The translations under genes were made by a program, and so were the position numbers. From positions 207,674-271,673 of the forward strand of contig JAKLFP010000002.1 in the NCBI GenBank assembly GCA_022711115.1: DNA of 64,000 nucleotides, in the 5' to 3' direction. Of the stretch, positions 15,208 through 64,000 are shown piece by piece (position 1 is the first letter of the stretch; the number at the start of each line of letters is the position of its first letter). The stretch comes from Candidatus Omnitrophota bacterium. GTDB lineage: Bacteria > Omnitrophota > Omnitrophia > Omnitrophales > Aquincolibacteriaceae. Below the pieces are notes generated by a model. The model searched no databases, had not been told where the DNA came from, and saw nothing but the letters and a program-made list of their open reading frames with translations.

Positions 15208-15282
15208 AAATCCTCCCTTGAAAAATGAAGGGATGGCGCTTTTAAAAGCGCCATCCCATAACGTTAAAATGGTCTAAAATAC

Positions 15283-15651: not shown

Positions 15652-15686
15652 TGCTTTCTCCTTTCAGCGAGAAATGTTTAAAAATA

Positions 15687-16901
15687 TTACTTTCGGAACA
15701 AACTGATAAGATTCCACATTGGCAAAAACATTCCCAACGCCAAAATAAGAACCATGCAACCAAGGACCACGATCAGCATCGGTTCAATAAGGGCCATGAG
15801 ATTGTCTACCGTATACGCTACCTGCATATCATAATAGTCTGAGACCTTTAAAAGCAATTCATCAATTTTACCGGTCTCTTCCCCCACCCGAACCATGCGT
15901 ACGACCGCCGGCGGAAAAATCTTGCTGGCCTTCATGGGCTCGGTCATTCCCGAACCTTCAATCACGCTCACCCGAATCTTATCAATCGCCTGGGCAACCA
16001 CCCTATTTTCCGCACTCCCATAAGCGATCTCTAGGGCCTTGACGGCCGTAATACCGCTTTGAATAAGCATGGACATGACTCGCGCAAAGCGGGACATATC
16101 GGCTTTCAATATTAACGGACCAAAGACCGGCAACTTGAGTATCATCTGATCCCAATAAAGTTTCCCCATCGGCGTTGTCAAAAACTTCCGAAAAAGAACC
16201 ACCGCCAAAATAAGCCCCGCAGCCATGAGCCAGCCGTAATGAACGGTTGCTTCATGGATCCCCAATAAAATACGCGTCGGCAGCGGGAGTATAACGTTGC
16301 GCTGAGCAAATAATTGGGCAAAGCGCGGAATGATGAAATTCGTCAGTGTAAAAAAAGCCAGCATGATCGCACTCAGAACGATGATGGGATAACGCAAAGC
16401 GGCTTTGATGCGCAAACGGAGTTTTTCCTCGGCCTCTCCAATATAGATCAGCCTCTCAAGGATCTGTTCCAATCGCCCCGATATTTCTCCAGCGCTGAAC
16501 ATATTCACGTAAAGTGAGTTAAAGGCTTGGGGATAACGCGCCAAACTTTCGGAGATGCTCGCGCCACCTCGAATGCTCCCCAATAAACCGTCCACAATAT
16601 TTTTGAGTAAGGGATTGCGGTCTTGTTCGCCGATGACTTCCAAAGATGCGGGAACCGTGAGGCCGGCTTTGACCAGGGTATAAAATTCACGCGTAAAACC
16701 GTTGATATCCGAGATTTTGAGCCGCCGGAAACGTTCAAAAAAACTCAAGGAAACGGAACTGCGGGACGGCGAGATCTGGAGCGGCGTCAAACCATCTTGT
16801 TTGAGGGCATTCCCTGCCTCAATTTCGTTATTCGCAGTGAGTTGGCCCGTGATAAGCTTGCCGAAATTATCCCGCGCCTTGTACTGGAAAAGGGTTGCCA
16901 T
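15687..16901 (-). CDS. pilC: type II secretion system F family platform protein (PilC/GspF)
   Basis: A 404-aa protein with two GspF repeats and three TM segments. Confidence 0.9.
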   Translation of the reverse strand: MATLFQYKARDNFGKLITGQLTANNEIEAGNALKQDGLTPLQISPSRSSVSLSFFERFRRLKISDINGFTREFYTLVKAGLTVPASLEVIGEQDRNPLLKNIVDGLLGSIRGGASISESLARYPQAFNSLYVNMFSAGEISGRLEQILERLIYIGEAEEKLRLRIKAALRYPIIVLSAIMLAFFTLTNFIIPRFAQLFAQRNVILPLPTRILLGIHEATVHYGWLMAAGLILAVVLFRKFLTTPMGKLYWDQMILKLPVFGPLILKADMSRFARVMSMLIQSGITAVKALEIAYGSAENRVVAQAIDKIRVSVIEGSGMTEPMKASKIFPPAVVRMVRVGEETGKIDELLLKVSDYYDMQVAYTVDNLMALIEPMLIVVLGCMVLILALGMFLPMWNLISLFRK

Positions 16902-18571: not shown

Positions 18572-18603
18572 AGGTCTCCCGCCAAAAGAAATAAGAGGTC
18601 GAC

Positions 18604-18972
18604 TTAACTTCCCAGCAATTTCTGGATCGTTTCGATAAACGCCTTCAGGTCAAAGGGTTTTGTCAAATAGCCATCCGCACCCACTTCTACGGCCAATTTG
18701 CGGTCCGCCTCACTTCCCTTTGCGGAAAAAATAACGATGGGAATATGCTCATACGCTTTATCAAATTTCAGCATCCGACAAACTTTATAACCGTCCAGCT
18801 TAGGGAGCATAAGGTCCAAAAGAATCAAATCCGGAGAATCTTTTCGAGCTGATTCAAGACCCTCCTGCCCATCCATGGCAGTAATCACTTCACAACCTAT
18901 TGCGGAAAGACGAGCCGATACAATTTGACGTATATCCGCCTCATCATCCACAAGCAGTATCTTTTTTTTCAT
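18604..18972 (-). CDS. stand-alone response regulator receiver (CheY-like)
   Basis: LLVDDE...DLILLDLMLP...YLTKPF. Confidence 0.85.
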   Translation of the reverse strand: MKKKILLVDDEADIRQIVSARLSAIGCEVITAMDGQEGLESARKDSPDLILLDLMLPKLDGYKVCRMLKFDKAYEHIPIVIFSAKGSEADRKLAVEVGADGYLTKPFDLKAFIETIQKLLGS

Positions 18973-19072
18973 TGCTTAACCCTTCGCTGTTCATAGCGAC
19001 TCAAAAAACCTTTAATAAAATATCGACATAAATCTCCCGGACTAAAACAACCTGGATGCACAAGTCCCGGGT

Positions 19073-21205: not shown

Positions 21206-21524
21206 CGAACAAACAAACCTTTTCTGAATACTGATAAAATTTGTTTTTTGTGAACCCCAAAAAAAGAAGAAACAAGAAAGTAGCAGAGATTATTTTCCAC
21301 AACTCTCATAAATTCAATATGATGCGTGAAGTCTCCGGATTTATCAAGCCTTTAGTGTCACAAGACGACCGAATAAACATTTGGGCGTTGCCTATCGATT
21401 CAAACAAGAGATTGCAGCATCGTTTTTATCAAAAAGGATGAAGCTAAAAGGAGCCGTACGCCAGTGGCTGTGTGTTGAAAGACGTTGGGGCGTTTTTCCC
21501 GCAGGACCTATGAATCAATTTTCA

Positions 21525-22097
21525 TCAGGGTTGTTTCGGGATCGTTTGATAGTAAAAAAAGATCACATCCCTGCGTCCGATGACACCAACGAGATTATCA
21601 TTTTCTATCACCGGCAGCGTATGGATATTGCCGATACACATCAACTGGATCATTTCAGAAAAAGGTGTTTCCGGCGAAATCGTTTGAACATCCCGCGTCA
21701 TCACCTCCTGCACATCCGGGAAGGCTGGCTGTTTTTCGCCCTGAAGCTGCGCTTTTCCCATAATATGAAACAGATCTGTCGCGGTAATAACGCCGACGAG
21801 CCTATGGTTTCGGGATACCACCGGCAAACCACTTACCCGATAACGCATCATCAGTAATGCTGCCTGAACTACGGAATCTTCTTCACAGACCGTCACCATG
21901 GATTTTGACATCAAGTCCTTGGCTTTCAATTGCATCGCTTTTTCCGGGTCAAGACTGCTGATATGATGACTGTCGAAAATAGATTGGAAAAGAACTTCTG
22001 AATCGATCAGAGGATTCCCGCAATAAGCACAAAAACGGGCTTCGGAAGCAGGTTGATCACTACACTTACTGCAACCTTTTTTGTATTTTTGTTCCAT
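21525..22097 (-). CDS. CBS-pair protein with an N-terminal zinc ribbon
   Basis: The N-terminus carries CSKCS...CAYCG, followed by two CBS motifs. Confidence 0.7.
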   Translation of the reverse strand: MEQKYKKGCSKCSDQPASEARFCAYCGNPLIDSEVLFQSIFDSHHISSLDPEKAMQLKAKDLMSKSMVTVCEEDSVVQAALLMMRYRVSGLPVVSRNHRLVGVITATDLFHIMGKAQLQGEKQPAFPDVQEVMTRDVQTISPETPFSEMIQLMCIGNIHTLPVIENDNLVGVIGRRDVIFFYYQTIPKQP

Positions 22098-22328
22098 GGT
22101 GTTCTCCCCGACACCGCATCGACATTATCAGCATCGCTGGTTGAGGATGCACGAAATGGCTCCGGCATGAAAAAAATGCTTTCATCGTCCGAAAACACAC
22201 CTGATGGTGCGAACCTATTCTACAAATCAAATACCCGGGTATTTCATGAAAACGCTGTAATTCTAGCGCACATCATATAAATGAGTCTATGGCTAAAACC
22301 ATCTGTCAACGAGCGGAAACAAAAAAAA

Positions 22329-22754
22329 TTAGCTTGAAGGCAAATAATTCGATGTGCCGGTAAACGTACCGTCCTGATCGATTCTGATCGTTGAAGCATC
22401 CTTAAGGCTTGTTGCCGTAGCGTAAAAGGATGTCGCGATGTCCCCCGTCAAACCTGGTCCTATGCTGAAATTGTAGCTTTCCGTTGTGACCTCCACTCCC
22501 AGTTTGTCCTTGATATCTGTAATGGTGCACGGAGTGGCCGCACACGCGATATACGTATTGTGCGTCGTATAATAAACCCTTTCTCCGGTTCTGATGACTC
22601 GCAGATAGACCGCCGCCGCACTAGCTTTGGATTTGTCCACACTCGCGGTAAAGTTTGGAATCACCATCGCGGCCAGAATGGATGCCACCACCATGGTTAC
22701 GATAAGTTCTAAAAGCGTTAAGCCTTTTTGTATTTTTTTATTTGTCTTTTGCAT
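22329..22754 (-). CDS. prepilin-type minor pilin (PilE/FimT/GspH-like)
   Basis: MQKTNKKIQKGLTLLELIVTMVVASILAAMV. The start was set at the internal ATG (22754). Confidence 0.7.
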   Translation of the reverse strand: MQKTNKKIQKGLTLLELIVTMVVASILAAMVIPNFTASVDKSKASAAAVYLRVIRTGERVYYTTHNTYIACAATPCTITDIKDKLGVEVTTESYNFSIGPGLTGDIATSFYATATSLKDASTIRIDQDGTFTGTSNYLPSS

Positions 22755-24095: not shown

Positions 24096-24923
24096 TCAAG
24101 CGATACCCGGCAATTCCTTCCAGGCATGCGAACTGTTGCAGTACATGATCCTTCCAGTGACGGGCGCTCCGGGCTGATAATACACAAGCGTCCCTTCTCG
24201 CGTTGCATTACACGCATAGACGTTTATATCCACAGCCCCAACCTTGATGGCGCCTTCGACGCTTAACACCGGATAAACGTTAGAATCGGAACTGCTCATG
24301 GTGACCCCTCTGCCCGAAAAAGTAGTTGTTGAAGTGGCCGGATCGCCAGGAGAACCCGTTTGAACGCGCAGTTCCCGCGGAACAGAAAGTTGTGTTGCAT
24401 TCGGTAAAGTCGCATGGGCAGACCCATGCATGCGCAACACCGCTGTATCATTCAAATTGTTTTGAAATGCTATCCCCGCGCCATTCGCCGCATCATAGTT
24501 TTGCAATCGAATGCCCGGACTGCTGACGTAAGCAAAGAACTTCGCAGTGGTCGAAGTCATCGTTCTGATTTTTACGTTTCCTTGATTATCCACATAAAAT
24601 CCGTTATGAATATCCAAAAGAAAATTGGGGTAGATTGTCCCAATACCAACTTTCCCTTGAACGACGAGGGAAGTCGCTGTTTCCGTTCGGGAGGAATTCG
24701 CTGGGCACACTTCATCCACCCAGCAGACACTGCTTGCATTCATGTAATCAGCACCGATGGCCGCACGTTTAAGGCTTAATTGCTTATAGCCACCAAAAGG
24801 AGAAGGATAAGAAGAATTAACAGTCATTTGTCTGTCGACAGCAGCTGCAAAATCTGAAAAAGCAAACAGCCCCGCGATGCTTATCAAAATTATTCGACTT
24901 GCCTTCCTCATTCTCTTTTGCAT
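24096..24923 (-). CDS. secreted Cys-containing protein, paralog 1 of 3 (unknown family, co-operonic with the minor pilins)
   Basis: A Sec signal peptide (IAGLFAFSDFAAA). Conserved blocks shared with paralogs 2 and 3 include SYPSPFGGYKQLSLKRAAIG, VCW, LVVQGKVGIGT, and a C-terminal GAIKVGA...C...YCN..W..L. Confidence 0.6.
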   Translation of the reverse strand: MQKRMRKASRIILISIAGLFAFSDFAAAVDRQMTVNSSYPSPFGGYKQLSLKRAAIGADYMNASSVCWVDEVCPANSSRTETATSLVVQGKVGIGTIYPNFLLDIHNGFYVDNQGNVKIRTMTSTTAKFFAYVSSPGIRLQNYDAANGAGIAFQNNLNDTAVLRMHGSAHATLPNATQLSVPRELRVQTGSPGDPATSTTTFSGRGVTMSSSDSNVYPVLSVEGAIKVGAVDINVYACNATREGTLVYYQPGAPVTGRIMYCNSSHAWKELPGIA

Positions 24924-24943
24924 TTTTTCCTCATCCTGCCTCA

Positions 24944-25918
24944 TTAAGCTTTAAGTTTTTTCCAGCCACGGCCGTCACAAAAATAAAAACGTCTATCACT
25001 AAGAAAGGTGATGACTCCTTTCGTCCATGCGGTGCCATCATCACAAGCAGGCAGACTCGTCGCCAGCCATTGCGCCCCGATTTTTACGGCACCCCTTACA
25101 TTCAAGACCGCTTCAGTAACATGATTGGGATCTGAGCTTTTGATGGTCATGTTGGCCCCTCCAAAAAAATCGGTGGTCGATGTCGAAGTACCACTGCTGT
25201 CGCCGGAAAAAAATAAAAGCCGGTTATTCATGATAAAACTCCAAACCGATTTATTTGGATCGACGGACGTATAATAGGGATTAAGCGTGAAAATGCTATA
25301 TTGACCTAAATTATTTAACAGGTCTAACTGAATCGAGTTCCCCGCCACGGGTTGTTGAAATTTGATTGTCGGAGAAGTCGTTGCTGACGGTTTCTCGTAA
25401 ATGTAAACTTTTGCATTAGGCACTAGATCAAGCGCCCCTATCGCGATACGCGCATAGCGATCCACCTGGAATGCGGTTATCTTGCATTCGAGACCATCTT
25501 TCGAGCCGTTACCATTTTCATCATACCAATCATACCCCGGGGGACAGGAGGTACCGGAGGGAGCTACCGCATTCCCCACAACCGACAAAAGCCCTTTCGG
25601 CCGTGCCGTGCCAATGCCCACATTCCCCTCCACAAACAATGAGTCATTAAGAGCCGAAGACCGTGAAGATCCGCTCGGACAGTACGGATCATTGGAATCA
25701 TCCCAACAAACAACCGATCGATTGACATAATGGGTGCCGAGGGCCATATACTTCAGGTTCGCTTGCCGGTAGCTTCCGTGGGAAGTCGGATAGGTCTCCG
25801 TAGAGGTAAAGTGGTTACCGCTTGCAAAAGAAATAGGCGAAGAGAAAAAGAGAGTTCCTAACAACGCCATCGCCAAAGTTTTTCCGGCCGCACTCACCTT
25901 CAAATCAACTCTTTTCAT
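24944..25918 (-). CDS. secreted Cys-containing protein, paralog 2 of 3
   Basis: A signal peptide. It shares TYPTSHGSYRQANLKYMALG, VVCW, FVEGNVGIGTARP, SCPPGYDWYDENGN...ECKITAFQV, and the C-terminal VRGAVKIGA...CDDG...FYFCDGRGWKKL. Confidence 0.6.
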   Translation of the reverse strand: MKRVDLKVSAAGKTLAMALLGTLFFSSPISFASGNHFTSTETYPTSHGSYRQANLKYMALGTHYVNRSVVCWDDSNDPYCPSGSSRSSALNDSLFVEGNVGIGTARPKGLLSVVGNAVAPSGTSCPPGYDWYDENGNGSKDGLECKITAFQVDRYARIAIGALDLVPNAKVYIYEKPSATTSPTIKFQQPVAGNSIQLDLLNNLGQYSIFTLNPYYTSVDPNKSVWSFIMNNRLLFFSGDSSGTSTSTTDFFGGANMTIKSSDPNHVTEAVLNVRGAVKIGAQWLATSLPACDDGTAWTKGVITFLSDRRFYFCDGRGWKKLKA

Positions 25919-25966
25919 TAAAGATTCACCGTCCATGTTTCACCTGGTTTTTCGCCATACTTCTCA

Positions 25967-26908
25967 TCAAGTGCCGAGAGTTTGCCATCCTGTATTGTCA
26001 CAAAACTGAAACTGGTTCCCGCTATACCGAATAAGCCCGTGATTAGTCACATCACAAACGACCGTTCCAGGCGTCGCGCCGACTTTGATCGATCCGTTAA
26101 CACCTAAGAGAGGGGATGTGGATCCAGCCGGATTTTTTATAACGATCCCTTTTCCGGAAAAAATCATTTTCTCTACGTTGGGTCCCATCATATAAAGAAC
26201 CAGTTCAGCCGGAGTCGTTAGGCTGAATAATCTTGGAGTTGGCGCCGCCGACCCGAAAAGTTGAAATGAAATGCTTTTGTTTCCCTCGTTTTGCAGCTGA
26301 AGACTCGGGCCGACAGCCGGGTTATCATTTTCCATCTTGAGAACATAACTATTCGTGATGGGCCCTCCCGATGAGGAAGTAAGAGAACGGTCGCTGAAAA
26401 AAATTGTTTTTCCATTATTGTTTACGTGCCCCACACTCAGTTCGTTCGATGCATTGATCTGAAATGCAGTGACCCGGCATTCTCCGGCATTAATGGCATT
26501 GTCACCATTTGCATCGTACCAATTCCAACCAATCGGGCAGCTTCCGCTGGTTGAGGGAATCACATTAAACTCGGGCGAAGTAACCGCAAAGCGCGCAACA
26601 GGAAGAGACGTAGTTCCGTCTTTCCCTTGCCGTGTATTCCCTATGCCCATATATCCCTGCACCACCAGAGACGTCGCCGCATCGATCGGGGTCGTTAAAA
26701 GACAAGTGGGATCATCGGCCCAACAGGTTGTTTTGGGATCCATGTAATTGGATCCAATAGCGGCATGCTTCAAGCCAATCTGCTTATAAGATCCTTGGGA
26801 GCTCGGAAGATAGGTTGTAAGCGTTACTTGCCGGGTTGCGGCAAAGAGAAATACTGGAAACAGGATAAAAAAAATTGCTAGCAATACAGCAATAGTCTTT
26901 TTACTCAT
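25967..26908 (-). CDS. secreted Cys-containing protein, paralog 3 of 3
   Basis: A signal peptide. It shares TYLPSSQGSYKQIGLKHAAIG, TTCW, LVVQGYMGIGN, SCPIGWNWYDANGD...ECRVTAFQI, and the C-terminal GSIKVGA...CDV...FQFCDNTGWQTL. Confidence 0.6.
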   Translation of the reverse strand: MSKKTIAVLLAIFFILFPVFLFAATRQVTLTTYLPSSQGSYKQIGLKHAAIGSNYMDPKTTCWADDPTCLLTTPIDAATSLVVQGYMGIGNTRQGKDGTTSLPVARFAVTSPEFNVIPSTSGSCPIGWNWYDANGDNAINAGECRVTAFQINASNELSVGHVNNNGKTIFFSDRSLTSSSGGPITNSYVLKMENDNPAVGPSLQLQNEGNKSISFQLFGSAAPTPRLFSLTTPAELVLYMMGPNVEKMIFSGKGIVIKNPAGSTSPLLGVNGSIKVGATPGTVVCDVTNHGLIRYSGNQFQFCDNTGWQTLGT

Positions 26909-34376: not shown

Positions 34377-36287
34377 TCAGGTTGTTGTGGATTCGTTTTG
34401 ATTGACCGATCGGTTGAATAACGCCCTGGGACCATTCTTTTTTTCCGGCTCCGGTTCCGCCGATTGATTGCCAAGAAAAACAATTAATTTCTGAAGACCT
34501 TGCCTGAGGATATCCACATTACGTGACCATTCCCCCAACTCACGAATGGCCGCCGCATTACGGCGATCCACTCGACTCCGGTAACGCCGATGCTCGTCCT
34601 CCAATTTGGCAACACGTATTTCCTGCTCGGTAAGCTTTGCGTCATACTCACCGCGTATCGTCTCACGCTCTTTGGAAAGAATGGCATGTTCTTGACGAAT
34701 ATTCTCCGTTTCCTGGACTTTCGTAATAAGCTCCGTGACTTTCCGTTCCAACTCAGAAAGCGCCATATCCCGAGCCTTAAGAATTTCCTCTTTTTCAATC
34801 AGACTGCGGTCTAACATCTTAATCTTTGCCGTCAAATCCATCTCACGGCTTTGAAGTCCTGCGATTTGGATCCTCACATCCTCCTGAACTTTTTCTTTCT
34901 CTGATAAACGCGTTTCCAGATCAGAAATTGTTGCATTCAATTCCTTTTCGCGGTTCTGAAAATGTAAAACCTGCGCTTGTGCCTCCTCCTGAGTTTTTTC
35001 CTTCTTCGCCAAACGCATTTCCAAATCAGAAGTCTTCGCTATCAATTCTTTTTCCCGATCCTGCCATACCGAAAGCTGACCCGTTGCTTCTTGCAACGCG
35101 TTTTCCTTTTCAGCGATCTTCGATTCCAAATCGGAGGTTTTTGCAGCCATCCCCTTTTCACGAAATTGATATTCCGCCAGCTCTTTCTGAACCGCTTCCA
35201 ACGATTTTTCAGTTTCTTGTAAGACACTTGCCAACGCATCCGCTCTGACTGTCATCTCTTTTTCACGGTTTATCAAATCAGACTGAGCTGTTTCCAGAGA
35301 ACGTTGTTTGTCAGTAAAATCCGCATCCGAAGCTTTTGCCTTCATCGCCAATTCCTGAACTCGCGCCTGAAGCGCTGCGATCTCCTCCTCCCGCTCAGCC
35401 AAGTCCCTTTCAAGCATCTTAATCCTGGATTCGGCCTCTTCGTCTTGTCTTCCCGTTTGTGAGCACGCTTCCTTTGAATCAGCCTTCTGAAAATCTCGCA
35501 TCCTGTTCTCCAAACGCTCCATTTGGCTCCGAAGGACGTCACACGTATCCTGCAAAGTTTGCTTGTTTTGTATTTCGCGGGCAAGTTCGTCCCTCAGCTT
35601 GGAAACTTCCTCACTTCCCTGTTTTTCCGATGGTCCTCTAAATCTATCCTGAAGTTCGCTTTTGAATTTTTCTTTCTCCTCAGAGGGCTGTTTGTTCATT
35701 GCTGCCTTCTCGTCTTGCATTCTTTGAAGACGATCCGAAAGCTCTCTCGCTCGCTTGTCCCAATCAGATTCAACGACAGGAACGTCTTCTTTAGCGGCGC
35801 TTTCTGCATCCGGGGATTTCACCTCCGGCAACGCGGGGTTCACTTCCATTTCAGGCGCAGGCACAGGAACCGTTTCAGAAATTTTTAGCAGATCCGGTTC
35901 GCTGACAACGGGGACAGAATCTGACGCCACCGACTGTTCTTTGGACAGCATATTCTCTGAATCATCTTTTAAAAAAATAGCAAGATCCGGAACTTCCGGC
36001 CACACAATTTGAAAACAATTTTTTTTGATCATGTCATGATTAGTCGTTTCGACAACAACTCCGAGTTTTTGAAAAAAATTCTTGATCCGGGCGGCCATGC
36101 CGAAAGAGAGATTGTCCAAAAGAATAAGCGGCATATTCAAGAGAGCCTGCTCGGCATCTTTTTTCTCAAGATCAAAAATTTCAACCATACGTTTCACAAC
36201 TTCTTTTTTTTGCTTCGGTGAAACAGATTGCAAAATGACGCTCCAATCCTCCGAAACGCCTCCGATCCTACTTTCATGCATCGCCAT
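34377..36287 (-). CDS. long coiled-coil protein with a globular N-domain and about four 35-aa tandem heptad repeats
   Basis: A 636-aa protein rich in E, K, L, and Q. It contains repeated KTSDLE.KIAEKE...REKEL units. Confidence 0.6.
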   Translation of the reverse strand: MAMHESRIGGVSEDWSVILQSVSPKQKKEVVKRMVEIFDLEKKDAEQALLNMPLILLDNLSFGMAARIKNFFQKLGVVVETTNHDMIKKNCFQIVWPEVPDLAIFLKDDSENMLSKEQSVASDSVPVVSEPDLLKISETVPVPAPEMEVNPALPEVKSPDAESAAKEDVPVVESDWDKRARELSDRLQRMQDEKAAMNKQPSEEKEKFKSELQDRFRGPSEKQGSEEVSKLRDELAREIQNKQTLQDTCDVLRSQMERLENRMRDFQKADSKEACSQTGRQDEEAESRIKMLERDLAEREEEIAALQARVQELAMKAKASDADFTDKQRSLETAQSDLINREKEMTVRADALASVLQETEKSLEAVQKELAEYQFREKGMAAKTSDLESKIAEKENALQEATGQLSVWQDREKELIAKTSDLEMRLAKKEKTQEEAQAQVLHFQNREKELNATISDLETRLSEKEKVQEDVRIQIAGLQSREMDLTAKIKMLDRSLIEKEEILKARDMALSELERKVTELITKVQETENIRQEHAILSKERETIRGEYDAKLTEQEIRVAKLEDEHRRYRSRVDRRNAAAIRELGEWSRNVDILRQGLQKLIVFLGNQSAEPEPEKKNGPRALFNRSVNQNESTTT

Positions 36288-55504: not shown

Positions 55505-58500
55505 TTATGCCGCGGTCTTGACCGAGGCTTGTGCCTGATAATTATCCACCATTTCTTGAATGGCGAGATACAGACGCCCGTCGCTGGTGATTTTGATGAA
55601 CTTCATCACGCCTGACTGCTCAAGCTCGCTTTTGATCAACTCAGGCTTCAGCATGATCTGTTTTTGCTTCTCAGGTTCCAAAGACACATATTTAAGAAGC
55701 GCGTAGCGCACCGCCGTCAAGGCGAGTTCTTTCAGACCGGCATCCGAGATCTGGCTGATTTCGGCCAGGATCGAATAGATCCCGGCATCTTTCACGCCGA
55801 TATCCTGCGTCCAGGACGCCACCAGCAATTCCTGATGCGCCCTTCTCACATTCGCCATGCGTATATTGAGATTCTTCGCATCAACAGCCACCGGCGTAAC
55901 CGGCCCTGCTTTGTTCCATCCGATACCGATCCGTTCCCCTTTTCTCTGATTGTAGAAAATGATCACCTGCGACGGTTTCATTAACGCCAGCATATTCAGC
56001 ACAGCTTCCGCATCCTTTCCGGGATGATTCATAAGAACTGAAAAGGATGGGCTCTTGTTATTTTGCAAAAGTTGTCCCAAAGCCGTATCCAGCATCGCCT
56101 TGTCGTGCGCGATCTTACCCTGGTCTAACCGGCCGGACATATCCGCGTAACGCGTGGGCTCCACAAACACTTCCGATCCGCCCATCACGACCATTTGAAT
56201 CCTGGCGCTCAGCGCATCCGCATCCCCATATCGCCCGATATTCTTCAGCTGACCCGTAAGATCCGAATTCACGAGAATCACAATCGCATCCGCATCCAAA
56301 CCAAGCAACTTATTCATGAACGCATCTCGAAATAAATTAAACTGTGTTTTTTCGCGCTCCAAACCTTTTTGTCCCAACTCCCGCAATTCCGACCGAAATT
56401 TTGCTTCATCAAACGGCTCCTGAAGTGTTACCTTCTCGATTTGCCCTTTCTCCATCAATCCCACCAACGGATTTTCCGCAAGTCCTACCTCCGAACGAGT
56501 GACAGCGAGTGCTGGTTCTTTATCGCCGATCTGCGCATCCCAAGCATCCAACCCCGCTTGTTCTTCAAGCCTCATCGCCAGGGGCAACTGCGCATCACGG
56601 TCAATTTCCTTCACCAAAAGTCCGTTGAACCATAGCAATTTTTCGGTAATGGTCCGGGACTCGGCCTGAGGATCGATCTCTGAAAGATCCACGACGAGTT
56701 CTGAAAAATGTTCGACAATTTCCTGTTTATCGGGAAGATTTGCGTCCAATAAGACTTTTAAGTTTTCAAACACCCGACGGAATCCTTCCAGGACCTTCGG
56801 ATCATGATCCGCGCGCCCAAGGCCGAAGAGCTTTTGAAAATACCGCACACCCGGATCCTTTGAATTCGGATCAAAAACATCGAGCAGGGATACATAATAG
56901 TAATCTGAAGTTTCTACATCTGCGCAACATGCGGCGTTTCTTTTGAGACCAAGGATGAGGATCGGATTCTTTGAATTAACAGGCTTGACCTCCCCTTGGT
57001 TTTCTTTCAACAACGACGCTTTGTAATATTTGTTGATCGTCTTGACAATGTCCGCTATCGCCTTTCCCCATTTAAAATCAAGAATCTGCCCATCCAAGAC
57101 TAAGTCCGGAAAAAGTGTGGCTCCGTCAGCCGAACGAATTGGGGGTTTTACACTTGTTTCCCGGCCTATGACCAAATACTTCGCAAAAACAGTCCCTACC
57201 GTCTCCCATATTTTCCCTTTCGCCCTATTTACGCTTTGCGTCGGCGCTGATTTATCAAAAACCTTATAAGTTTTCGCACTACGATCCCACACAAGGGTCG
57301 ACCACCCCGGAGAACCATCCTCGTCTTCATAGGTGAATGTCAAATACAGCCTCCCATCCTCCGGTTTTTCGATCTTAGTGAGATAAATGGAGGCGAGACT
57401 CCCCACCGCGCCAATGGGAAAGACACTGCCCAACTCAGTGCCGTCAGGAAGAAGTGTAGTTTTTTGCAATCGCCCATATCGCATAGACACCAGCCAAAAA
57501 GCAACATCAAGCTGAAACTTTTTTGTAATACCAGTGCGAAACACTTCCTCCTGCATCCAGTAAAACTCTGCCATCTGTCGGGTTCCAAAACTGTGGTATT
57601 TTTTTGGATCTCTCGGATCCCAAAAAATAACTGTGGTACCTTTTTTTTCATTTTCTCCCTCATACTCAAATGTCAGATAAAGTCGGCCGGAACGCTTTTC
57701 AATCTTTATGAGATAAATGGAGACAAGACCAGCCCCCGCCCCAATGGTGGGAGTGCTTCCTAATTTGACACCGTCAAGCGGGAGAGGTGCGACCCTTTGC
57801 AAAGTTCCACGTCCCATTTCCACAAACCAATCAGCAACATCAAGTCGAAGATCTTTTGCGATTCCAGTATGCCAAACTTTCCGCATTCCTTCTAAAACTT
57901 CAAGCAGATTTGTCTCCTTTTCCGTTTTAGAAAGGATTGTCTTTCCCTTACCTTGGTCGAACCTTTGATATGTTTTTGGATTTTGAGGATCCCAAATTAT
58001 AACAACCCTGCTTTCTTTGTCATTCTCGCTTTTATTTTTATACTCAAATATCAGGGAAAGGCGATCGTCATCACGTTTTTCGATTTTTGTTAGATAAATC
58101 CAAACAAGATCTGTCGTTCCTATACTAAAGCTCACATCCAATTTATGACCATCAGGACGCAGTGTTTCTTTGAGAAAACGTCCCTGTTTCATGTAAACAA
58201 GCCAGTCAGCAGCATCCAGTCGAAGGTTTTTTGCAACACCAGTGCGGAATACTTCCTCCTGCATCCAGTAAAATTCTGCCATTTGCCTTGTCCCGAAATC
58301 ATGATAAGTTTTTGGATCTTTGGGGTCCCAAAAAATAACAGCCGTGTCTTTCTTTCCATTTTTTCCTTCATATTCAAACGTCAGATAAAGCCGCCCATCG
58401 AAACGCTTTTCGAGTTTCGTGAGGTAAATTGAAACAAGATCCTTAATTACGCCTATATGAAGCTGTTCATTTAATGTATCGCCATTAGGAAAAAGCATAG

Positions 58501-61500
58501 TTTTTTGCAATGTGCCATTACCAGTAGAAACAAGCCAATCAGCGACGTTCAGCCTAAGCTCTTTCGTAACACCTGTTCGAAAAACTTCCTCTTGCATCCA
58601 ATAAAATTCGGCCATTTGCTTTGTCCCAAAATTATGGTAAGTTTTTGGATCTTTGGGGTCCCAAAAAATAACAGCCGTGCCTTTTTTCCCATTTTTTCCT
58701 TCATATTCAAACGTCAGATAAAGCCGCCCATCGAAACGCTTTTCGAGTTTAGTGACGTAAATAGAAGCAAGATCATTAATCGCACCAACTGAAAATCGTT
58801 TATTCAATCTATTCCCATCAGGAAGGCGAGCAGCCTCTTGCAATTCGCCACTCCCCATTCCCACAAGCCAATCAGAAACGTTTAGTCTAAGTTTTTTCGT
58901 AATCCCTGTTCGAAACACTTCCTCCTGCATCCAGTAAAATTCTGTCATTTGTCGCGTCCCAAACTTCTGGTATGTCTGTGGATTTTTCTGATCCCAAAAA
59001 ATAACTGCGGTACCGTCCTTACCATTTTTCCCTTTATACTCAAATGTCAGATATAGCCGGCCATCGAAATGTTTTTCGATCTTTGTAAGATGAATAGAAG
59101 CAATATCCATAATGGCTCCCACGGGAAGACGGTTGGCTAGTTCAGCACCTCCAGGTAACCGGGCAGACTCTAGCAATATTCCTCTCCTCAGATACACAAG
59201 CCAATCAGCAACATCAAGTCGAAGCTCTTTGGCAACCCCTGTCCGCATGACTTCTTGAATAAGTGCTAAAAATTCGCGATGCTTTTGATTCTTTTCCACA
59301 TTTGAAAGCTCAGGCGTAAGATCTTCTTTTCCCCTCACCTCCGAGCGATGAACAAGGCTTGCGACATCCGTCACCCAGAATTTCTTAACGCTGTCAATCC
59401 CTACATCCCGGATTTCTACAACATCCCATGTCTTGCGGAATGGCTGGATGTAATGCGTGGCCAGGTTGCCCGAGGTCATGACTTGATATTTGGGTTCTTT
59501 GTCAAGCGCTTCGGTGGAGGCAAGAACTTTATTCTCTTCCTGAACCGTTGAATAGTGTTTGACATATATTTTCTGAACACCGGTCTCGCTGAGCACAAAA
59601 GCTATTTTTTGTATTAGGGCCTGAATCCATCCTTGATAAACTTTCCGTTGCTCAGGTGTAAGATGGTGCATTCCCCGGCTGGACTGAATCTCATCAATAT
59701 AAAGTGCTTTTTCACCATCCACATTCACCTGCAAAGCGATGAAACGTCCCAAAGAGCCTTGTGTTGGCAAATAGCTTAACCCCTGCTCCATATTCAACAT
59801 TTTGAGTTCCGGCCTTTTTTCGATCTCTTCAGAATCCGGAAACACATGGAAGGATATAAAATGGGTGTCGACGCGATGTCCTGTAGCGGCAAAACCACGA
59901 CTCGTAGGATACCAGAATGCATCAACGGTGGCCCTGACCGGCTGGCCGGCTGCATCATTCCATGAAATCTGCGGCGCGTTTTCAATCGCCTGAATCCACT
60001 TCTCCTCGCCTTCCGTAAGTTTTTCTTCGGGAACGAATTCCAACCCAGATCCTTTTTCTGCGACCGGAGCACCTCCTTCTCTCACCTCCGAGCGCGACAG
60101 ATTGATGGTACGCTTGTCGCTGCGAATTTGAATATTATAAGTCTCTCCAAGAATCGTTATCCGGCCACCTTTTATGGGTGGGTGATCCCACGAATGGCTC
60201 CAAGCTTCTTTGACCCCGATACTTGGTTTACCGTCGACAAATTCAAAAATGAGATCAAAAAGATCAATTTTATAATGACGATCTCCCTCTTCATGCCGGA
60301 CGATGTCCGATCTAAAAATTTCGTAATATCCCCTTTTATCCGCACCGTTCGTTGCCTGCGACCATTCAGCTTCGGCATATTTGATTTCTTGACCCAACAG
60401 GATCTCCTTCCACTTCGGAATCACCCATGACCTTACCGATCTTATTTCAGAACGTCCAACCGGTTGAGAACGAGTGCCCGTTTTTCTTTGTACTAACACG
60501 AAAAACTCGCCTGCTGTCACATCCTTGAGTTCATTACCACCGATCCCTTGAGATGCAAAAAAGCCGGCTTGACTCTGAAAGGACAAAAATTCCAGACCCT
60601 GCTCGGTTCCATAAGAAGCTATGGCCTCCCAATGAGGATCGGACGTGATATCGACTTCGCCAGGTTTTTCATACATAAAATAGTCATCGCGTAGAATCAG
60701 CCAAGCAAACGGATTAAGACGCGCAAAGATTCTCGAGAGCCCCTTGGGCAATCTTCGATACCACTCATATATTTTGTCTTTAATCTCACCCTTGAGAAAT
60801 TGATTGATCCTGACATTCTTTATTTTCCACGGACCGATTACGAATGGCCTGTCACTGGCAAAACTCCTGACAGATAATTTCGTAAATTGTTTTGCAAAGC
60901 CAAAATAGTCGATGGTGATGACGGATCCGGCTTCAAGCCGTTCCGCGACATTCTTCTGCCATTCCAAGGCGTGAAGATTGACCGCGATTTCACCGCCACG
61001 ATCTAATACCTTTGCTCCTGATTCACCGAGACGCGCAAGATAGTCTAGAATCGCAGATTCATTCTGCGCATCTAACGAATCAAAAATTTCTTGCAACTTC
61101 CCTCCTTCATTCACCATGACATAAGCCTCGACCAACTTCCCAGTCTTCTTGTCCTTTCGAACACGATGCACCGGTAATGCATCCGGAAGTTCATTAGAGA
61201 CAAAAACACCTTTGATTCCTTTCGCAAGATCGAGATCCGGTGCGTAGGCGGAGCCGAGAACCCATCGAACAGGTTCTCTGACAAGGCGGGGATGCTGAAC
61301 GTTTTCAATCAATCCTTTGCTCGAATCAACGATAACGTATTCGAATCCCTTGCTCGAATAAAGATCCGTTTTCTTCAAGTGCTCCAGAATGGCTTTCGCC
61401 ATTGCCCCCGTTCCAGCCCCCATTTCAACCACCTTGAAATTATCCGGTCGGCCCAGCCGTTCCCACTCGGAAACAATAGCCTGCCCGAGTCCTGTTCCAA

Positions 61501-64000
61501 AAGTTTCAGGTGCGATCATGGGAAACGTATAAAAATCTTGTTCTCGATTTACTCCAATCTTTGCAATATTCTCACCATAATATCCGGCTCCATAAGCGTT
61601 TAAGCGCATGAATGCTTCGAAAGTCACCATGTTCCCTTGCGCGCGAATGGCCGTTACCACAGGATTTTCCGTAATCCTCAATTCCGAACGAGTCATAAGA
61701 TGGTCATATTTTTTAACCGCAACAAGAATATCAGGGCGTCCAAGCTGAGCAAATTGTTCGGCCATGGGTCTTAATCGCGCAAAGACTTTTTGAGCGCCAT
61801 CGAGATTACCATTCGCCACCATGTCGGCAAAATCCGCGATCGCCCGAACTAATTCGCCCCGCGAAGTCACTCTTCCAGTTGAGAAATCCTTCATGTTCGC
61901 CGCTATTTCCATTAAAGTAGTGCCGGAAACATCCGCTCCCGGCTTCAGCGAATCACGCTGCAACATGTGAAGTCCCATATCGACGGCAAAATCCACATCT
62001 TCGCCTTGAAGCATGCCAATGAAGCGGTTCATTTTTATCGAAATATCCTGAGCGCGGGCCTCATCTAAAACGTTTTGGCCTTTCGCGGCAAATTCACTTA
62101 TTGAATCCTGGGCTAATTGATAATTAGGGGAAAAAGCCGTCACCGCCGATAAAAAGCTCAAAATCGAATGAGCTGCATCCCCTCGGGAAGTATGGCCACG
62201 TTGAAGCATGTTCTCTGCCGCACTAACACGGCTTAGAGTTTCAATGATTGCATCCTGATGAGGCAATTTCCCGTAAACCAAATCATCGAAAAGACCTACG
62301 CTCTGGATCACTGCCTGAACTAAAACTTCCTCAGCATCTTTCTCACCCTTCAAGGATTCAAATGCTGCCAACTCACGACGAGCAGCCTCAAACGCTTTAT
62401 CCAATGCAAGCAAAGTTGCGGCTCGATTACTTCGGAATGGCAAATCAAAGGGCTCCAGATATAGAGATAAATTTTTCAAAACTGTTTCACTCAAGGGAGC
62501 CGGCGTTTTACCTTTCAAACCATTAAATAGCTCCTGCGCCTTGATAAAATCACCCGCTAGCATGGCCTCCTGCATGGCATCCAATACCATTAATTTTTCA
62601 CTTTTCCCTCTCATTTCAGATCGGGTTCTTTGAGACGCTTCGCGCGTCACTGAAATCTGTGGTTTTTCAATCGTTGTTGGCATGTTTGACGCAGGCATCG
62701 CTGTTGGAACCGTCTGGGCCGCCATGGCTGCAAGCAGTTTTTTCGCAAAATAATTGTATTCCGCCATGCGGTACGGGTTTTGTCCAAACACTTTATGCCG
62801 CGCCTCATCGATCGCGATTTTACGAAGCGGCTTAATTGCCAGTTGGAAGGAACGTGTGATCAAGCGCGTCGCCATATAGCACATCACTCCGAAAATTCCG
62901 GCTACCCCCGCCGAAGCAATCCCCATCTTGCTCCAAAGGCGATCCATGATCGCGCCGATTAAAGCGGAAAAAACAGAAGCGATCAGGATGTAGCTTAGCG
63001 CGCGCCCAAACTGATAAGTCACTTGCTGCCAAACGGGCACTTGGATAAGCGTGCTTTCGGACTTTAAGCCAAGCCAGGAGATCATATTCCCGCTTTCAAA
63101 ATTTTTCACGGCCTGACGCGCAAGGAGGATGGCTTTGCCGACGATCTCCTCTTTCTGTGACAACTCCGCACCCACAAAAGCGGCCACGAATTGCTGAAAG
63201 GCATCACTCAGAAAATAACCGTTGCGATCGAGCTCATTTTCCAAACGTTCTCCAGGCTGCATAAAATGAGCCTGCGGGTGCTCCTGAAGCCATGTGCTGG
63301 ATGTGTGCCGGTCGAGGACTGACTGAATAAGTTTGTCATAAAAATAAACGGCCAAATTCTTATCTTTGAATAAATTCTCAGGCTTCATGATCTTTTTCGA
63401 AACAAGAAATCTTCCAAGCTTCTTGTCCTGTTCCGACAGAGTTCCTAACTGTGCTGGTTCCGCCCTCATCTCGGAGCGGGGTTTGCCTTGGGAAACTTGC
63501 GATGGTCTTGTGACGGGTCCTTCCTTAATGGCTTTTGCGATATCCCGCCTAATAGCTTCCACGGACCTCGGACGCCATTCTTGCTTTGATTTTGCCGTGT
63601 GCGGCGCACTTTTCGTTGAAGGTTTAGCTGCTTTGACCGAGGCGGCTGGAGTTTCTGCCGCTTTCTTAGCCGGCGTTATTGTCGCCGGAATTTTTTGAGA
63701 AGCAACGGTTGCTTTGATGGCCCCCGAAACCGCATTGGTTCCCGACTGCAGCACCGGAGCTGGAGTTCTTATGGTCATCCCCGGCAACGGAGAAGGGATT
63801 CCAATCGCCGCAAACATCGTCGTCGGAGAAACACGGTTGGTCACCGCAGACGCGACTCGAACCGCTTCGGAGATACCATTGGTGATCGCGTTAAGCTTGG
63901 CAATCGGAGGCGCGACGTTAGTTCCGCTCGTCGCAATCATGACTTCCGATGGCGGATAAAGGACATCCACTGCTTTTGCCCATGCTAATGCCTTGGCAAA
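55505..64000 (-). CDS. giant membrane-anchored multidomain protein (at least 2,831 aa, N-terminus beyond the window). It has a MidA/NDUFAF7-like SAM-methyltransferase domain and six ~110-aa tandem repeats.
   Basis: A single uninterrupted reading frame with no stop before position 64000. A Pro/Ala/Lys-rich low-complexity N-region is followed by two TM helices (about 62,850-63,015). The MidA-like block (about 60,570-61,630) carries DFYTFPMIAPETFG, VVEMGAGTGAMA, and DITSD. The repeats lie at about 57,270-59,285, and a C-terminal region of about 590 aa follows. Confidence 0.75.
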   Translation of the reverse strand, partial: FAKALAWAKAVDVLYPPSEVMIATSGTNVAPPIAKLNAITNGISEAVRVASAVTNRVSPTTMFAAIGIPSPLPGMTIRTPAPVLQSGTNAVSGAIKATVASQKIPATITPAKKAAETPAASVKAAKPSTKSAPHTAKSKQEWRPRSVEAIRRDIAKAIKEGPVTRPSQVSQGKPRSEMRAEPAQLGTLSEQDKKLGRFLVSKKIMKPENLFKDKNLAVYFYDKLIQSVLDRHTSSTWLQEHPQAHFMQPGERLENELDRNGYFLSDAFQQFVAAFVGAELSQKEEIVGKAILLARQAVKNFESGNMISWLGLKSESTLIQVPVWQQVTYQFGRALSYILIASVFSALIGAIMDRLWSKMGIASAGVAGIFGVMCYMATRLITRSFQLAIKPLRKIAIDEARHKVFGQNPYRMAEYNYFAKKLLAAMAAQTVPTAMPASNMPTTIEKPQISVTREASQRTRSEMRGKSEKLMVLDAMQEAMLAGDFIKAQELFNGLKGKTPAPLSETVLKNLSLYLEPFDLPFRSNRAATLLALDKAFEAARRELAAFESLKGEKDAEEVLVQAVIQSVGLFDDLVYGKLPHQDAIIETLSRVSAAENMLQRGHTSRGDAAHSILSFLSAVTAFSPNYQLAQDSISEFAAKGQNVLDEARAQDISIKMNRFIGMLQGEDVDFAVDMGLHMLQRDSLKPGADVSGTTLMEIAANMKDFSTGRVTSRGELVRAIADFADMVANGNLDGAQKVFARLRPMAEQFAQLGRPDILVAVKKYDHLMTRSELRITENPVVTAIRAQGNMVTFEAFMRLNAYGAGYYGENIAKIGVNREQDFYTFPMIAPETFGTGLGQAIVSEWERLGRPDNFKVVEMGAGTGAMAKAILEHLKKTDLYSSKGFEYVIVDSSKGLIENVQHPRLVREPVRWVLGSAYAPDLDLAKGIKGVFVSNELPDALPVHRVRKDKKTGKLVEAYVMVNEGGKLQEIFDSLDAQNESAILDYLARLGESGAKVLDRGGEIAVNLHALEWQKNVAERLEAGSVITIDYFGFAKQFTKLSVRSFASDRPFVIGPWKIKNVRINQFLKGEIKDKIYEWYRRLPKGLSRIFARLNPFAWLILRDDYFMYEKPGEVDITSDPHWEAIASYGTEQGLEFLSFQSQAGFFASQGIGGNELKDVTAGEFFVLVQRKTGTRSQPVGRSEIRSVRSWVIPKWKEILLGQEIKYAEAEWSQATNGADKRGYYEIFRSDIVRHEEGDRHYKIDLFDLIFEFVDGKPSIGVKEAWSHSWDHPPIKGGRITILGETYNIQIRSDKRTINLSRSEVREGGAPVAEKGSGLEFVPEEKLTEGEEKWIQAIENAPQISWNDAAGQPVRATVDAFWYPTSRGFAATGHRVDTHFISFHVFPDSEEIEKRPELKMLNMEQGLSYLPTQGSLGRFIALQVNVDGEKALYIDEIQSSRGMHHLTPEQRKVYQGWIQALIQKIAFVLSETGVQKIYVKHYSTVQEENKVLASTEALDKEPKYQVMTSGNLATHYIQPFRKTWDVVEIRDVGIDSVKKFWVTDVASLVHRSEVRGKEDLTPELSNVEKNQKHREFLALIQEVMRTGVAKELRLDVADWLVYLRRGILLESARLPGGAELANRLPVGAIMDIASIHLTKIEKHFDGRLYLTFEYKGKNGKDGTAVIFWDQKNPQTYQKFGTRQMTEFYWMQEEVFRTGITKKLRLNVSDWLVGMGSGELQEAARLPDGNRLNKRFSVGAINDLASIYVTKLEKRFDGRLYLTFEYEGKNGKKGTAVIFWDPKDPKTYHNFGTKQMAEFYWMQEEVFRTGVTKELRLNVADWLVSTGNGTLQKTMLFPNGDTLNEQLHIGVIKDLVSIYLTKLEKRFDGRLYLTFEYEGKNGKKDTAVIFWDPKDPKTYHDFGTRQMAEFYWMQEEVFRTGVAKNLRLDAADWLVYMKQGRFLKETLRPDGHKLDVSFSIGTTDLVWIYLTKIEKRDDDRLSLIFEYKNKSENDKESRVVIIWDPQNPKTYQRFDQGKGKTILSKTEKETNLLEVLEGMRKVWHTGIAKDLRLDVADWFVEMGRGTLQRVAPLPLDGVKLGSTPTIGAGAGLVSIYLIKIEKRSGRLYLTFEYEGENEKKGTTVIFWDPRDPKKYHSFGTRQMAEFYWMQEEVFRTGITKKFQLDVAFWLVSMRYGRLQKTTLLPDGTELGSVFPIGAVGSLASIYLTKIEKPEDGRLYLTFTYEDEDGSPGWSTLVWDRSAKTYKVFDKSAPTQSVNRAKGKIWETVGTVFAKYLVIGRETSVKPPIRSADGATLFPDLVLDGQILDFKWGKAIADIVKTINKYYKASLLKENQGEVKPVNSKNPILILGLKRNAACCADVETSDYYYVSLLDVFDPNSKDPGVRYFQKLFGLGRADHDPKVLEGFRRVFENLKVLLDANLPDKQEIVEHFSELVVDLSEIDPQAESRTITEKLLWFNGLLVKEIDRDAQLPLAMRLEEQAGLDAWDAQIGDKEPALAVTRSEVGLAENPLVGLMEKGQIEKVTLQEPFDEAKFRSELRELGQKGLEREKTQFNLFRDAFMNKLLGLDADAIVILVNSDLTGQLKNIGRYGDADALSARIQMVVMGGSEVFVEPTRYADMSGRLDQGKIAHDKAMLDTALGQLLQNNKSPSFSVLMNHPGKDAEAVLNMLALMKPSQVIIFYNQRKGERIGIGWNKAGPVTPVAVDAKNLNIRMANVRRAHQELLVASWTQDIGVKDAGIYSILAEISQISDAGLKELALTAVRYALLKYVSLEPEKQKQIMLKPELIKSELEQSGVMKFIKITSDGRLYLAIQEMVDNYQAQASVKTAA
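57270..59285 (-). repeat. six in-frame tandem coding repeats (about 330-370 bp each) inside the giant ORF
   Basis: Recurring FYWMQEEVFRTG...LRL.V.DWLV...G.L......P.G..L......G.......IYLTKIEKR.DGRLYLTFEYEGKNGKKGTAVIFWDPKDPKTY..FGT.QMAE units. A DNA-level recurrence of atccagtaaaattctgccat appears at about 57,556, 58,266, 58,599, and 58,930. Confidence 0.85.

Follow-up and report, generated by a model that had tools for sequence, protein, structure and literature searches.

The last 8.5 kb of a 64,000-nucleotide stretch of the genome of a Candidatus Omnitrophota bacterium (assembly GCA_022711115.1, contig JAKLFP010000002.1; the whole stretch is called the window below) hold the end of a giant gene on the minus strand. 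We show that the visible part of its product is a chain of autonomous modules, namely a membrane hairpin, an unassigned module, a MidA methyltransferase, a small module, a NatD-like GNAT fold, repeats with an accessory domain, and a tail. The modules are delimited by a conserved, peptide-level and boundary-specific junction motif, RSE-hydrophobic-R, which differs between groups of relatives. With a probability of roughly 40%, we propose that the protein is an Omnitrophota giant of a known kind, punctuated by these junction motifs and cut as a polyprotein.

Omnitrophota commonly carry open reading frames (ORFs) of more than 20 kb (Seymour et al. 2023, PMC10066038). West-Roberts et al. 2023 (10.1101/2023.11.21.568195) described giants that string many unrelated enzymes, methyltransferases included, between transmembrane (TM) helices, and long Omnitrophota proteins of this kind have been catalogued by the thousands (2026 preprint, 10.64898/2026.06.07.730766). 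The protein belongs to these giant multi-enzyme membrane ORFs of the phylum, and we consider its identity and architecture, as the C-terminal part of a modular Omnitrophota megaprotein, to be very probable. Because such giants are known in Omnitrophota, the fusion of enzymes, repeats and TM helices is expected and is no anomaly. A preliminary description of the stretch had called these parts not normally found together, a claim that, as worded, is not supported by the comparison with Omnitrophota giants, which tile many enzymes between TM helices.

In the mechanism that we propose, a dedicated endoprotease would recognise the RSE-hydrophobic-R junctions. The giant gene would act as a polyprotein, with one membrane-anchored translation product cut into separate enzymes, protein-modifying ones among them, and the released enzymes would act in the cytoplasm of the producer or, after delivery, in that of a prey or host cell.

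A junction motif between modules

We read the C-terminal 3,330 amino acids (aa) of the protein, comprising 2,831 in the window and 500 upstream (9,993 nt directly read, all stop-free); aa numbers count from the start of the 2,831-codon window fragment and not from the N-terminus of the protein. The fragment contains seven copies of RSE[MLIV]R, at the positions given in Table 1, as well as a degenerate RSEVG, and the 500 aa upstream hold RSEMR and RAEMR. Eight RSE[MLIV]R copies were observed in the 3,330 aa against 0.011 expected, and 0 of 20,000 shuffles reached eight, which rules out chance as the origin of the motif. This frame has seven matches, against two in total for the five remaining frames over the entire 64-kb window; among tripeptides outside the repeats, RSE is over-represented most strongly. 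The motif lies in short polar linkers between adjacent modules, and the intervals between copies are domain-sized (120-480 aa, and ~950 aa for the repeat module). At the methyltransferase module, RSELR just precedes the first element, and RSEIR just follows the last element, of the alignment of stand-alone MidA proteins.

Several other origins of the motif were considered. Internal translation starts or Shine-Dalgarno sequences are ruled out, since the Arg, Ser and Glu codons of the motif vary synonymously and no Shine-Dalgarno sequence is present; among 53 instances, the codon at position 4 is also GCG, GCC, GTC, GTA, CTT, CTA or ACG besides ATG or GTG. For this protein we also reject the view that the motif belongs to a longer DNA or protein repeat, because the sequences flanking its copies are unrelated; in one relative (P0141), some copies do lie within a longer repeated linker. 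It is also unlikely that the motif is a substrate of the MidA module, given that no PF02636 match was found in the motif-bearing relatives P0001, P0130, P0132 and P0134, or in the last 4,344 aa of P0141.

To collect relatives, we searched 1.84 billion representative proteins exhaustively with HMMER, using aa 1303-2502 as the query. This returned 31 proteins, nearly all of 1.3-7 thousand aa, of which the named ones are from Omnitrophota or Omnitrophica; these counts are lower bounds, as the 9,878-aa protein itself is missing from the results of both protein searches and the longest match has 6,964 aa. Eight relatives carry the same motif, with 5, 3, 10, 4, 8, 11, 2 and 26 copies of R[SA]E[MLIVAQ]R; this protein has nine, and 0.04-0.31 are expected across the nine proteins. 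The 79 instances give the consensus [A/S/P]-R-[S/A]-E-[L/V/M/A/I]-R-[S/A/T/G], in which the flanking residues are small or polar. Tandem pairs of the motif, 8-66 aa apart, are common in relatives, and copies 7 and 8 of this protein form such a pair, 34 aa apart.

Other relatives have other dialects: a KPGSSDME-type peptide occurs nine times in P0155, and KPEAPDMA occurs in P0138 and P0135. The peptides that tightly enclose the GNAT module are RSEVR in this protein, RSELR in P0139 and RAEVR in P0141; in P0140, RSEMR stands just after the module, and in P0155 the module is flanked by KPGSSDME and KPSSSDIE. Because one and the same module is bracketed by differing peptides, the punctuation is positional, and it is the peptide that varies between relatives. 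The repeat module of P0001 is likewise bracketed, in its case by copies of RSEMR.

These observations point to recognition of the motif by a specific protein, since three invariant charged residues are kept in dozens of copies while the flanks drift, and since the peptide is replaced wholesale in other lineages. By analogy with the cleavage sites of viral polyproteins, the lineage-specific dialects suggest co-evolution with a specific reader. Junction peptides that delimit the modules of Omnitrophota giants seem to be new; the literature that we searched, whose limited coverage leaves room for an earlier description, contains no mention of the motif strings or of polyprotein processing in Omnitrophota.

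The gene and its modules

The preliminary description had reported a single minus-strand frame over 8.5 kb with no stop before the window edge. Translation bears this out, with 2,831 sense codons and one terminal stop, open at the edge; the longest ORF in any other frame across the 8.5 kb is ~110 aa. The description also held that the protein is larger than its visible part, and its figure of at least 2.8 thousand aa was an understatement. The full gene product, called on contigs from ENA, JGI and NCBI, has 9,878 aa (29.6 kb). The gene runs ~21 kb past the window edge and is wholly internal to a 76-kb contig, and the window fragment is the C-terminal 29% of the protein. We found 0 mismatches over 19,745 bases when the window was compared with the ENA, JGI and NCBI loci that contain the neighbouring transporter gene, so that the frame passes the check for an assembly chimera; the ENA and NCBI contigs may be a single assembly. 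The 3' end of the gene is also present in a Logan contig. The upstream 400 aa, used as a query against genome and metagenome contigs, had no match.

The gene sits in surroundings that are ordinary for an anaerobe, with PFOR, an ADP-forming acetyl-CoA synthetase, NrdD/NrdG and a CitMHS transporter, along with ThrRS and a type IV pilus cluster. Four proteins of the window carry the name 'Candidatus Omnitrophota bacterium' at NCBI. At five loci (this gene and four related ones), we saw no conserved neighbour gene and no protease. Further off, window positions 24096-26908 and 34377-36287 hold ORFs without a clear family. Three consecutive minus-strand ORFs (282, 330 and 313 aa) had no Pfam match, and two of them, also scanned against NCBIfam, had none there; a 636-aa ORF gave only weak, sub-threshold matches of coiled-coil type.

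Table 1. Features of the giant gene within the window, and of the pilus cluster in the same window
Feature	Residues (aa)	Window position	Strand	Basis or remark
C-terminal 2,831 codons and stop		55505-64000	minus	stop-free translation
End of upstream ~476-aa module, including Pro/Ala/Lys-rich linker	1-174	63479-64000	minus	extended translation
Junction motif 1, RSEMR	175-179	63464-63478	minus
Membrane-hairpin module	180-459	62624-63463	minus
TM1	334-352	62945-63001	minus	Kyte-Doolittle
TM2	359-377	62870-62926	minus	Kyte-Doolittle
Junction motif 2, RSEMR	460-464	62609-62623	minus
Module with no family match	465-770	61691-62608	minus
Junction motif 3, RSELR	771-775	61676-61690	minus	directly before MidA fold
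MidA/NDUFAF7-type class I SAM methyltransferase module	776-1182	60455-61675	minus
Junction motif 4, RSEIR	1183-1187	60440-60454	minus	directly after MidA fold
Small module (115 aa)	1188-1302	60095-60439	minus
Junction motif 5, RSEVR	1303-1307	60080-60094	minus
GNAT-fold module	1308-1551	59348-60079	minus
Junction motif 6, RSEVR	1552-1556	59333-59347	minus
Six tandem ~111-aa repeats	~1565-2250	57251-59308	minus
Post-repeat domain	2251-2501	56498-57250	minus
Junction motif 7, RSEVG (degenerate)	2502-2506	56483-56497	minus
Junction motif 8, RSELR	2536-2540	56381-56395	minus
Tail module (291 aa), ending ...ASVKTAA	2541-2831	55508-56380	minus	stop at 55505-55507
PilQ secretin		8916-10487	minus
PilM-like		11610-13199	minus
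Concanavalin-A-like lectin (Laminin_G_3) ORF inside pilus cluster		14143-15207
PilC/GspF		15687-16901	minus
PilB ATPase		16901-18571	minus

The visible part starts within a module of which the window holds the end. A Pro/Ala/Lys-rich stretch is present there at aa ~20-175, as had been described, but it is not N-terminal, since ~7,000 residues lie upstream of it. Extended translation places another junction motif 481 aa upstream of the first one in the fragment, with globular sequence between the two. The membrane module carries the two TM helices of the preliminary description as a hairpin: two hydrophobic 19-mers joined by a 6-aa loop, the only segments in 3,330 aa that score above 1.5 on the Kyte-Doolittle scale. 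No homologue of this module was found among the 31 relatives. The next module (aa 465-770), which is expected from its sequence to be mostly helical, had no match in Pfam, NCBIfam or the PDB and none among the 31 relatives, and the small module between the two enzymes (aa 1188-1302) had none in any domain library or among the same relatives. Scans of the 3,330 aa against PHROGs, PADLOC and NCBIfam returned nothing meaningful.

The MidA-like domain had been proposed from three motif matches, which are borne out in the alignment. The Pfam hidden Markov model (HMM) PF02636 matches aa 838-1034 with E=1.9e-32 and 113.1 bits against a cut-off of 23.3, and the solved relatives of the module are 4f3n (COG1565, E=1e-10), 5ztz (an NDUFAF7 homolog) and 1zkd. 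The module aligns end to end with stand-alone MidA proteins and conserves VEMGAGTG, SNELPDALPVH, TIDY and DIT, in line with the invariant elements of the alignment: E-x-G-A-G-x-G, which is the S-adenosylmethionine (SAM) motif, N-E-x-x-D-A-x-P-x-H, T-I-D-Y and D-x-T. It has a ~45-aa insertion, a shortened C-terminal helical part and zero cysteine, and its identity to the relatives found does not exceed 33%. With its SAM motif and the remaining invariant residues preserved, the module looks complete and functional, and an activity of Arg-methyltransferase type is putatively assigned to it. No bacterial MidA is known to have a defined substrate.

The resemblance to MidA/NDUFAF7 proteins extends over their full length, including that of 4f3n, 1zkd and 5ztz, whereas the setting differs: here the domain occupies aa 776-1182 of a megaprotein fragment, and members of the family are stand-alone enzymes of ~380 aa (350-450). 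That MidA proteins are normally stand-alone, as the preliminary description had it, agrees with all 209 of the 209 relatives found (~290-690 aa). Because of this, the fusion of MidA to a giant repeat-bearing membrane protein is unusual; the count of fusions is a lower bound, as proteins longer than 6,964 aa are absent from the matches and long fusions could be hidden.

For aa 1308-1551, an AlphaFold2 (AF2) model built on an alignment of 14 homologous modules (predicted local distance difference test, pLDDT, 85.9; predicted template-modelling score 0.85) is a GNAT fold, closest to the N-terminal acetyltransferase NatD/Naa40, with ~12% sequence identity. The best Pfam match, Acetyltransf_8, has E=0.14, below threshold, and is seen in one of the 14 members. 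A conserved E-[IV]-Q-x-S-x-G stands at the place expected for the coenzyme A loop, with a spacing that departs from the canonical Q/R-x-x-G-x-G/A. As sequence support is weak, we speak of a GNAT fold and claim no membership of a named GNAT family. Unlike NatD/Naa40 and other GNAT acetyltransferases, the module falls below every Pfam GNAT threshold, does not clearly have the canonical loop and has an extra N-terminal subdomain. It is presumably dependent on acetyl-CoA.

This is the most widely shared module among the related megaproteins, with 16 found in the exhaustive search, and G-S-F-G, E-[IV]-Q-x-S-x-G, W and N-Y-x-x-P-F are invariant within it. The modules form a distinct family, apparently restricted to Omnitrophota. 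The module had no match among genome contigs, and its one match among metagenome contigs is the locus of P0141. It also occurs in short proteins of 154-450 aa (P0143, P0148 and P0150) and twice each in P0135 and P0138.

The six similar repeats of ~110 aa in the preliminary description are six copies of ~111 aa, 46-62% identical to the first; in the DNA they recur every 333 nt with 77-80% matches (Tandem Repeats Finder). The check by structure prediction gave a mixed outcome: the repeat was modelled by AF2 with pLDDT 70-89, and the domain that follows the repeats was modelled poorly. The predicted repeat unit has one helix and a beta-meander, with a conserved W, P-x-G and Y/FW-D/N, and its model had no significant fold match in the PDB (best E=0.017). 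Homologous repeats occur in 13 long relatives. The repeats and the accessory domain (aa 1565-2494) are the sole part that this protein has in common with P0001 (3,231 aa), at 38-39% identity, and the post-repeat domain is also conserved with P0145 and P0147.

From the repeats to the stop there are ~580 aa, close to the ~590-aa C-terminal region first described. Beyond their last junction, the RSExR-type relatives have tails of 141-295 aa, counted in P0131 and P0134 from the second-last motif. The tails of this protein and of the relatives showed no homology by phmmer or jackhmmer. In a separate alignment of megaprotein C-termini, 20 of 20 end in Ala and 12 of 20 in Ala-Ala (KAA, TAA, RAA, IAA, KSA and others), and a strand and an amphipathic helix usually come before this ending, which could serve as a signal for sorting, secretion or degradation.

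The relatives differ in their cargo, which includes an SNF2 helicase, PP2C, an NAD-dependent dehydrogenase, HEAT repeats and HATPase_c and is, judged by these domain assignments, of cytoplasmic type. Full-length relatives start with a signal-peptide-like N-terminus followed by a conserved head of ~400 aa (..IQDAH..EAQ..I...EG....GGFH..). The head is present in P0001, P0129, P0130, P0132, P0134, P0139 and P0141 and in a 7,015-aa gene of ENA contig ERZ761563 NODE_112, and it had no sequence match in Pfam or the PDB. Its pattern, x-D-A-H ... E-G ... G-G-F-H, may resemble that of the putative metalloprotease folds of TIKI/TraB/ChaN type.

NODE_112 carries two further giant genes side by side (nt 2076-12512 and 12866-22512). 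It comes from the same assembly, and by the NCBI accession series both genes belong to the same metagenome-assembled genome as the gene described here. One encodes P0130 (3,478 aa), with the same 111-aa repeats and an SNF2 helicase. Directly downstream of it is the 7,015-aa gene, with PTS-HPr, response-regulator receiver and PEP-utilizers_C domains, a signal peptide and the head at its start, and six junction motifs within the first 3,215 aa. Just upstream, a Laminin_G_3 protein is encoded.

Cysteine, topology and the choice between mechanisms

Two properties of the protein bear on where its modules act. The first is cysteine: there are 3 Cys in 3,330 residues (0.09%) against 157 in 13,495 (1.16%) in 35 other ORFs of the window, a ~13-fold difference (p=3e-13). 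The RSExR-type relatives have 0-0.28% Cys; P0131 and P0134 have none over more than 3,000 aa apiece, and in P0141 there are 4 in 6,964. The depletion is milder in relatives with other junction dialects (0.4-0.8%). Strong depletion of cysteine is typical of proteins that are exported or translocated unfolded. The second property is the topology of the hairpin. Its C-terminal flank is basic, with five Arg or Lys in ~17 residues, and the positive-inside rule would place both flanks in the cytoplasm. From the topology of the hairpin and the cofactor dependence of the modules, we infer that the last 2,450 residues face a cytoplasm. Because SAM and acetyl-CoA are cytoplasmic cofactors, the MidA and GNAT modules would act in the cytoplasm of the producer or of another cell, not on a surface. 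The preliminary description had suggested a role in host or partner interaction, which is possible through delivery, an option to which the strong Cys depletion and the signal peptides of full-length relatives point.

The reading that we prefer, a giant of known kind cut at its junctions, joins the boundary-specific motif to this cytoplasmic location. Extending it to the phylum is a step that we take more tentatively still: Omnitrophota giants in general may be bacterial polyproteins, in effect operons in one ORF, each a huge cysteine-free product cut at lineage-specific junctions into dozens of individual enzymes, with the head perhaps as the protease and some pieces, such as the MidA and NatD-like ones, perhaps acting on the proteins of another cell. 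Several points weigh against cleavage. Neither the 3,330 visible aa nor the scanned relatives yielded a protease domain, and no protease was seen as a conserved neighbour. Twenty of the 31 relatives are without any counted junction form. The evidence comes from the C-terminal 3,330 aa, with ~6,500 aa of the protein lying outside what was read, and the sidedness of the modules comes from a hydropathy scan and the positive-inside rule only. Strong Cys depletion would be odd for a protein that stays in the cytoplasm of an anaerobe. Finally, cleavage at the junctions is predicted by analogy, and the motif could instead be a site of binding, modification or export pausing.

The last of these points leads to the alternative that survives best, although we consider it unlikely: an uncleaved, membrane-anchored chain with its modules on the cytoplasmic face, in which the motifs would be docking or modification sites, or linkers for pausing or for separating folds. 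A single TM hairpin with a positive C-terminal flank fits such a chain, as do cargo enzymes that depend on cytoplasmic cofactors, the failure to find a protease in or beside the genes, and the tandem motif pairs 8-66 aa apart, which would suit a bivalent binder. Among the catalogued proteins, the commonest topology class (46%, with TM helices and no signal peptide) has likewise been read as membrane-anchored with cytoplasmic domains (10.64898/2026.06.07.730766). However, a structural linker needs no three invariant charged residues over dozens of copies with diverging flanks, and it would not be swapped wholesale for another peptide in other lineages. An uncleaved chain also leaves the Cys depletion unexplained, and full-length relatives start with signal peptides.

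Those last two features are what an effector train would account for, in which the protein is exported or delivered into prey or host, the hairpins translocate it, the junctions are cut in the target cytoplasm, and the freed enzymes modify proteins or DNA of the target. We rate this as somewhat less likely again; it nevertheless keeps substantial weight, because the conflict over location, with Cys depletion and signal peptides on one side and cytoplasmic modules on the other, stands. Cys is depleted ~13-fold here and is low in all RSExR-type relatives, and full-length relatives, the 7,015-aa gene included, begin with a Sec-type signal peptide and the head. The cargo families are protein- and chromatin-modifying (Arg methyltransferase and NatD-like here, PP2C and SNF2 in relatives). 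MARTX toxins offer a precedent, as autoprocessing at inter-domain P1-leucine sites releases their modular effectors (PMC2900308), and Omnitrophota have been inferred to be predators or parasites whose giant ORFs were proposed to act on target cells (PMC10066038). The window also contains a type IV pilus cluster. Against delivery, no RTX repeats, C80 protease domain or adjacent secretion-system genes were found at any gene examined, the hairpin has a positive-inside pattern, which suggests that it is resident in the inner membrane, and the PTS-HPr and response-regulator receiver modules of relatives fit a resident regulatory scaffold better.

The pilus cluster itself, a type IV pilus or type II secretion-like cluster, spans window positions 8116-18571 on the minus strand (Table 1). 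Type-4a pili in Omnitrophota have been discussed as markers of symbiosis or predation (PMC10066038).

The preliminary description had favoured a surface or envelope megaprotein, and an adhesin-like protein with partner-binding repeats and one odd external enzyme module is an improbable reading of the present data. Giant Omnitrophota ORFs have been proposed as an extracellular coat or as adhesins (PMC10066038), and tandem repeats and low cysteine would agree with this. SAM and acetyl-CoA, the usual GNAT cofactor, are however unavailable outside cells, and the single hairpin and its basic flank also disfavour a surface location. Scans of the visible 3,330 aa found no dockerin, TSP3, discoidin, laminin G or Ig-like domains, the repeat is without structural match to known adhesin folds, and in relatives the repeats are fused to SNF2 helicases. 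That the frame is an artefact, either an assembly chimera or a decayed or non-coding open region, can be dismissed: nothing positive speaks for it beyond a metagenomic source and repeats that can mislead assemblers, while 2,831 stop-free codons at 47% G+C are beyond chance, the sequence is identical in the ENA, JGI and NCBI records and partly so in the Logan assembly, several regions have significant protein homologues, and modules have confident folds.

Comparison with known systems

The gene is a single ORF of more than 20 kb in an Omnitrophota genome, as giant ORFs were defined by Seymour et al. 2023, and with MidA, a GNAT fold and a hairpin its visible third has the features of the multi-enzyme, TM-interspersed class (class 1) of the 2026 preprint. 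Like other Omnitrophota giants, it comes from the same phylum, consists of a single 29.6-kb ORF with TM helices among unrelated enzyme modules, has internal tandem repeats with diverged DNA copies, is poorly conserved and mostly unannotated, and has housekeeping neighbours. Unlike them, at 9,878 aa it is shorter than the members of the published sets (at least 30,000 aa and at least 10,000 aa). Archaeovorin-type giants exceed 30,000 aa, and the visible third of this protein is without their hallmark domains: no glycosyl transferases or hydrolases, NUDIX, C39 or S8 peptidase, or SecA-like DEAD domain was found in the C-terminal 3,330 aa. The dockerin and TSP3 repeats of Dockerin-type giants had no Pfam match in the visible part. 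PF02636, a NatD-like GNAT and a recurrent junction peptide all go unmentioned in the texts of West-Roberts et al. and the 2026 preprint. West-Roberts et al. could not split proteins for structure prediction, noting that they lacked data on where cleavage occurs (10.1101/2023.11.21.568195).

With MARTX and the large clostridial toxins, the protein shares a very large single chain, swappable cargo that needs cytosolic cofactors, conserved ends with variable cargo among relatives, very low cysteine, and short inter-module sites with a hydrophobic residue. RTX or glycine-rich repeats had no Pfam match in the visible part or in the scanned relatives, neither the 3,330 aa nor those relatives yielded a C80 cysteine protease domain, and no type I secretion genes are adjacent to this gene or at the four related loci, so that we do not place the protein in the MARTX family. 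Furthermore, the junction here is a strict five-residue charged peptide, in contrast to the loose Leu-X site of MARTX, and cleavage here is predicted. Viral polyproteins of picorna-, flavi- and potyvirus type resemble the protein in having one ORF, many folding units and a short junction peptide that varies between lineages; unlike them, it is encoded on a bacterial chromosome and has membrane hairpins and repeat arrays, and no cis-protease was found. The protein possibly works like a polyprotein or a MARTX-like effector train while being a member of neither family.

Omnitrophota giant ORFs are among the largest known genes, and whether their products remain one chain or are cut is a question stated in the literature. 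If the motif were merely a linker feature, the finding would amount to one more member of a catalogued class. Two protein-modifying enzyme folds, one of Arg-methyltransferase type and one NatD-like GNAT, have been assigned within the protein, and its extreme Cys depletion has to be explained by any model of where such proteins act. The interest lies not in the MidA fusion itself but in the punctuation, which makes it possible to ask whether, and where, an Omnitrophota giant is cut: the junction peptide gives a hypothesis that is testable with existing data.

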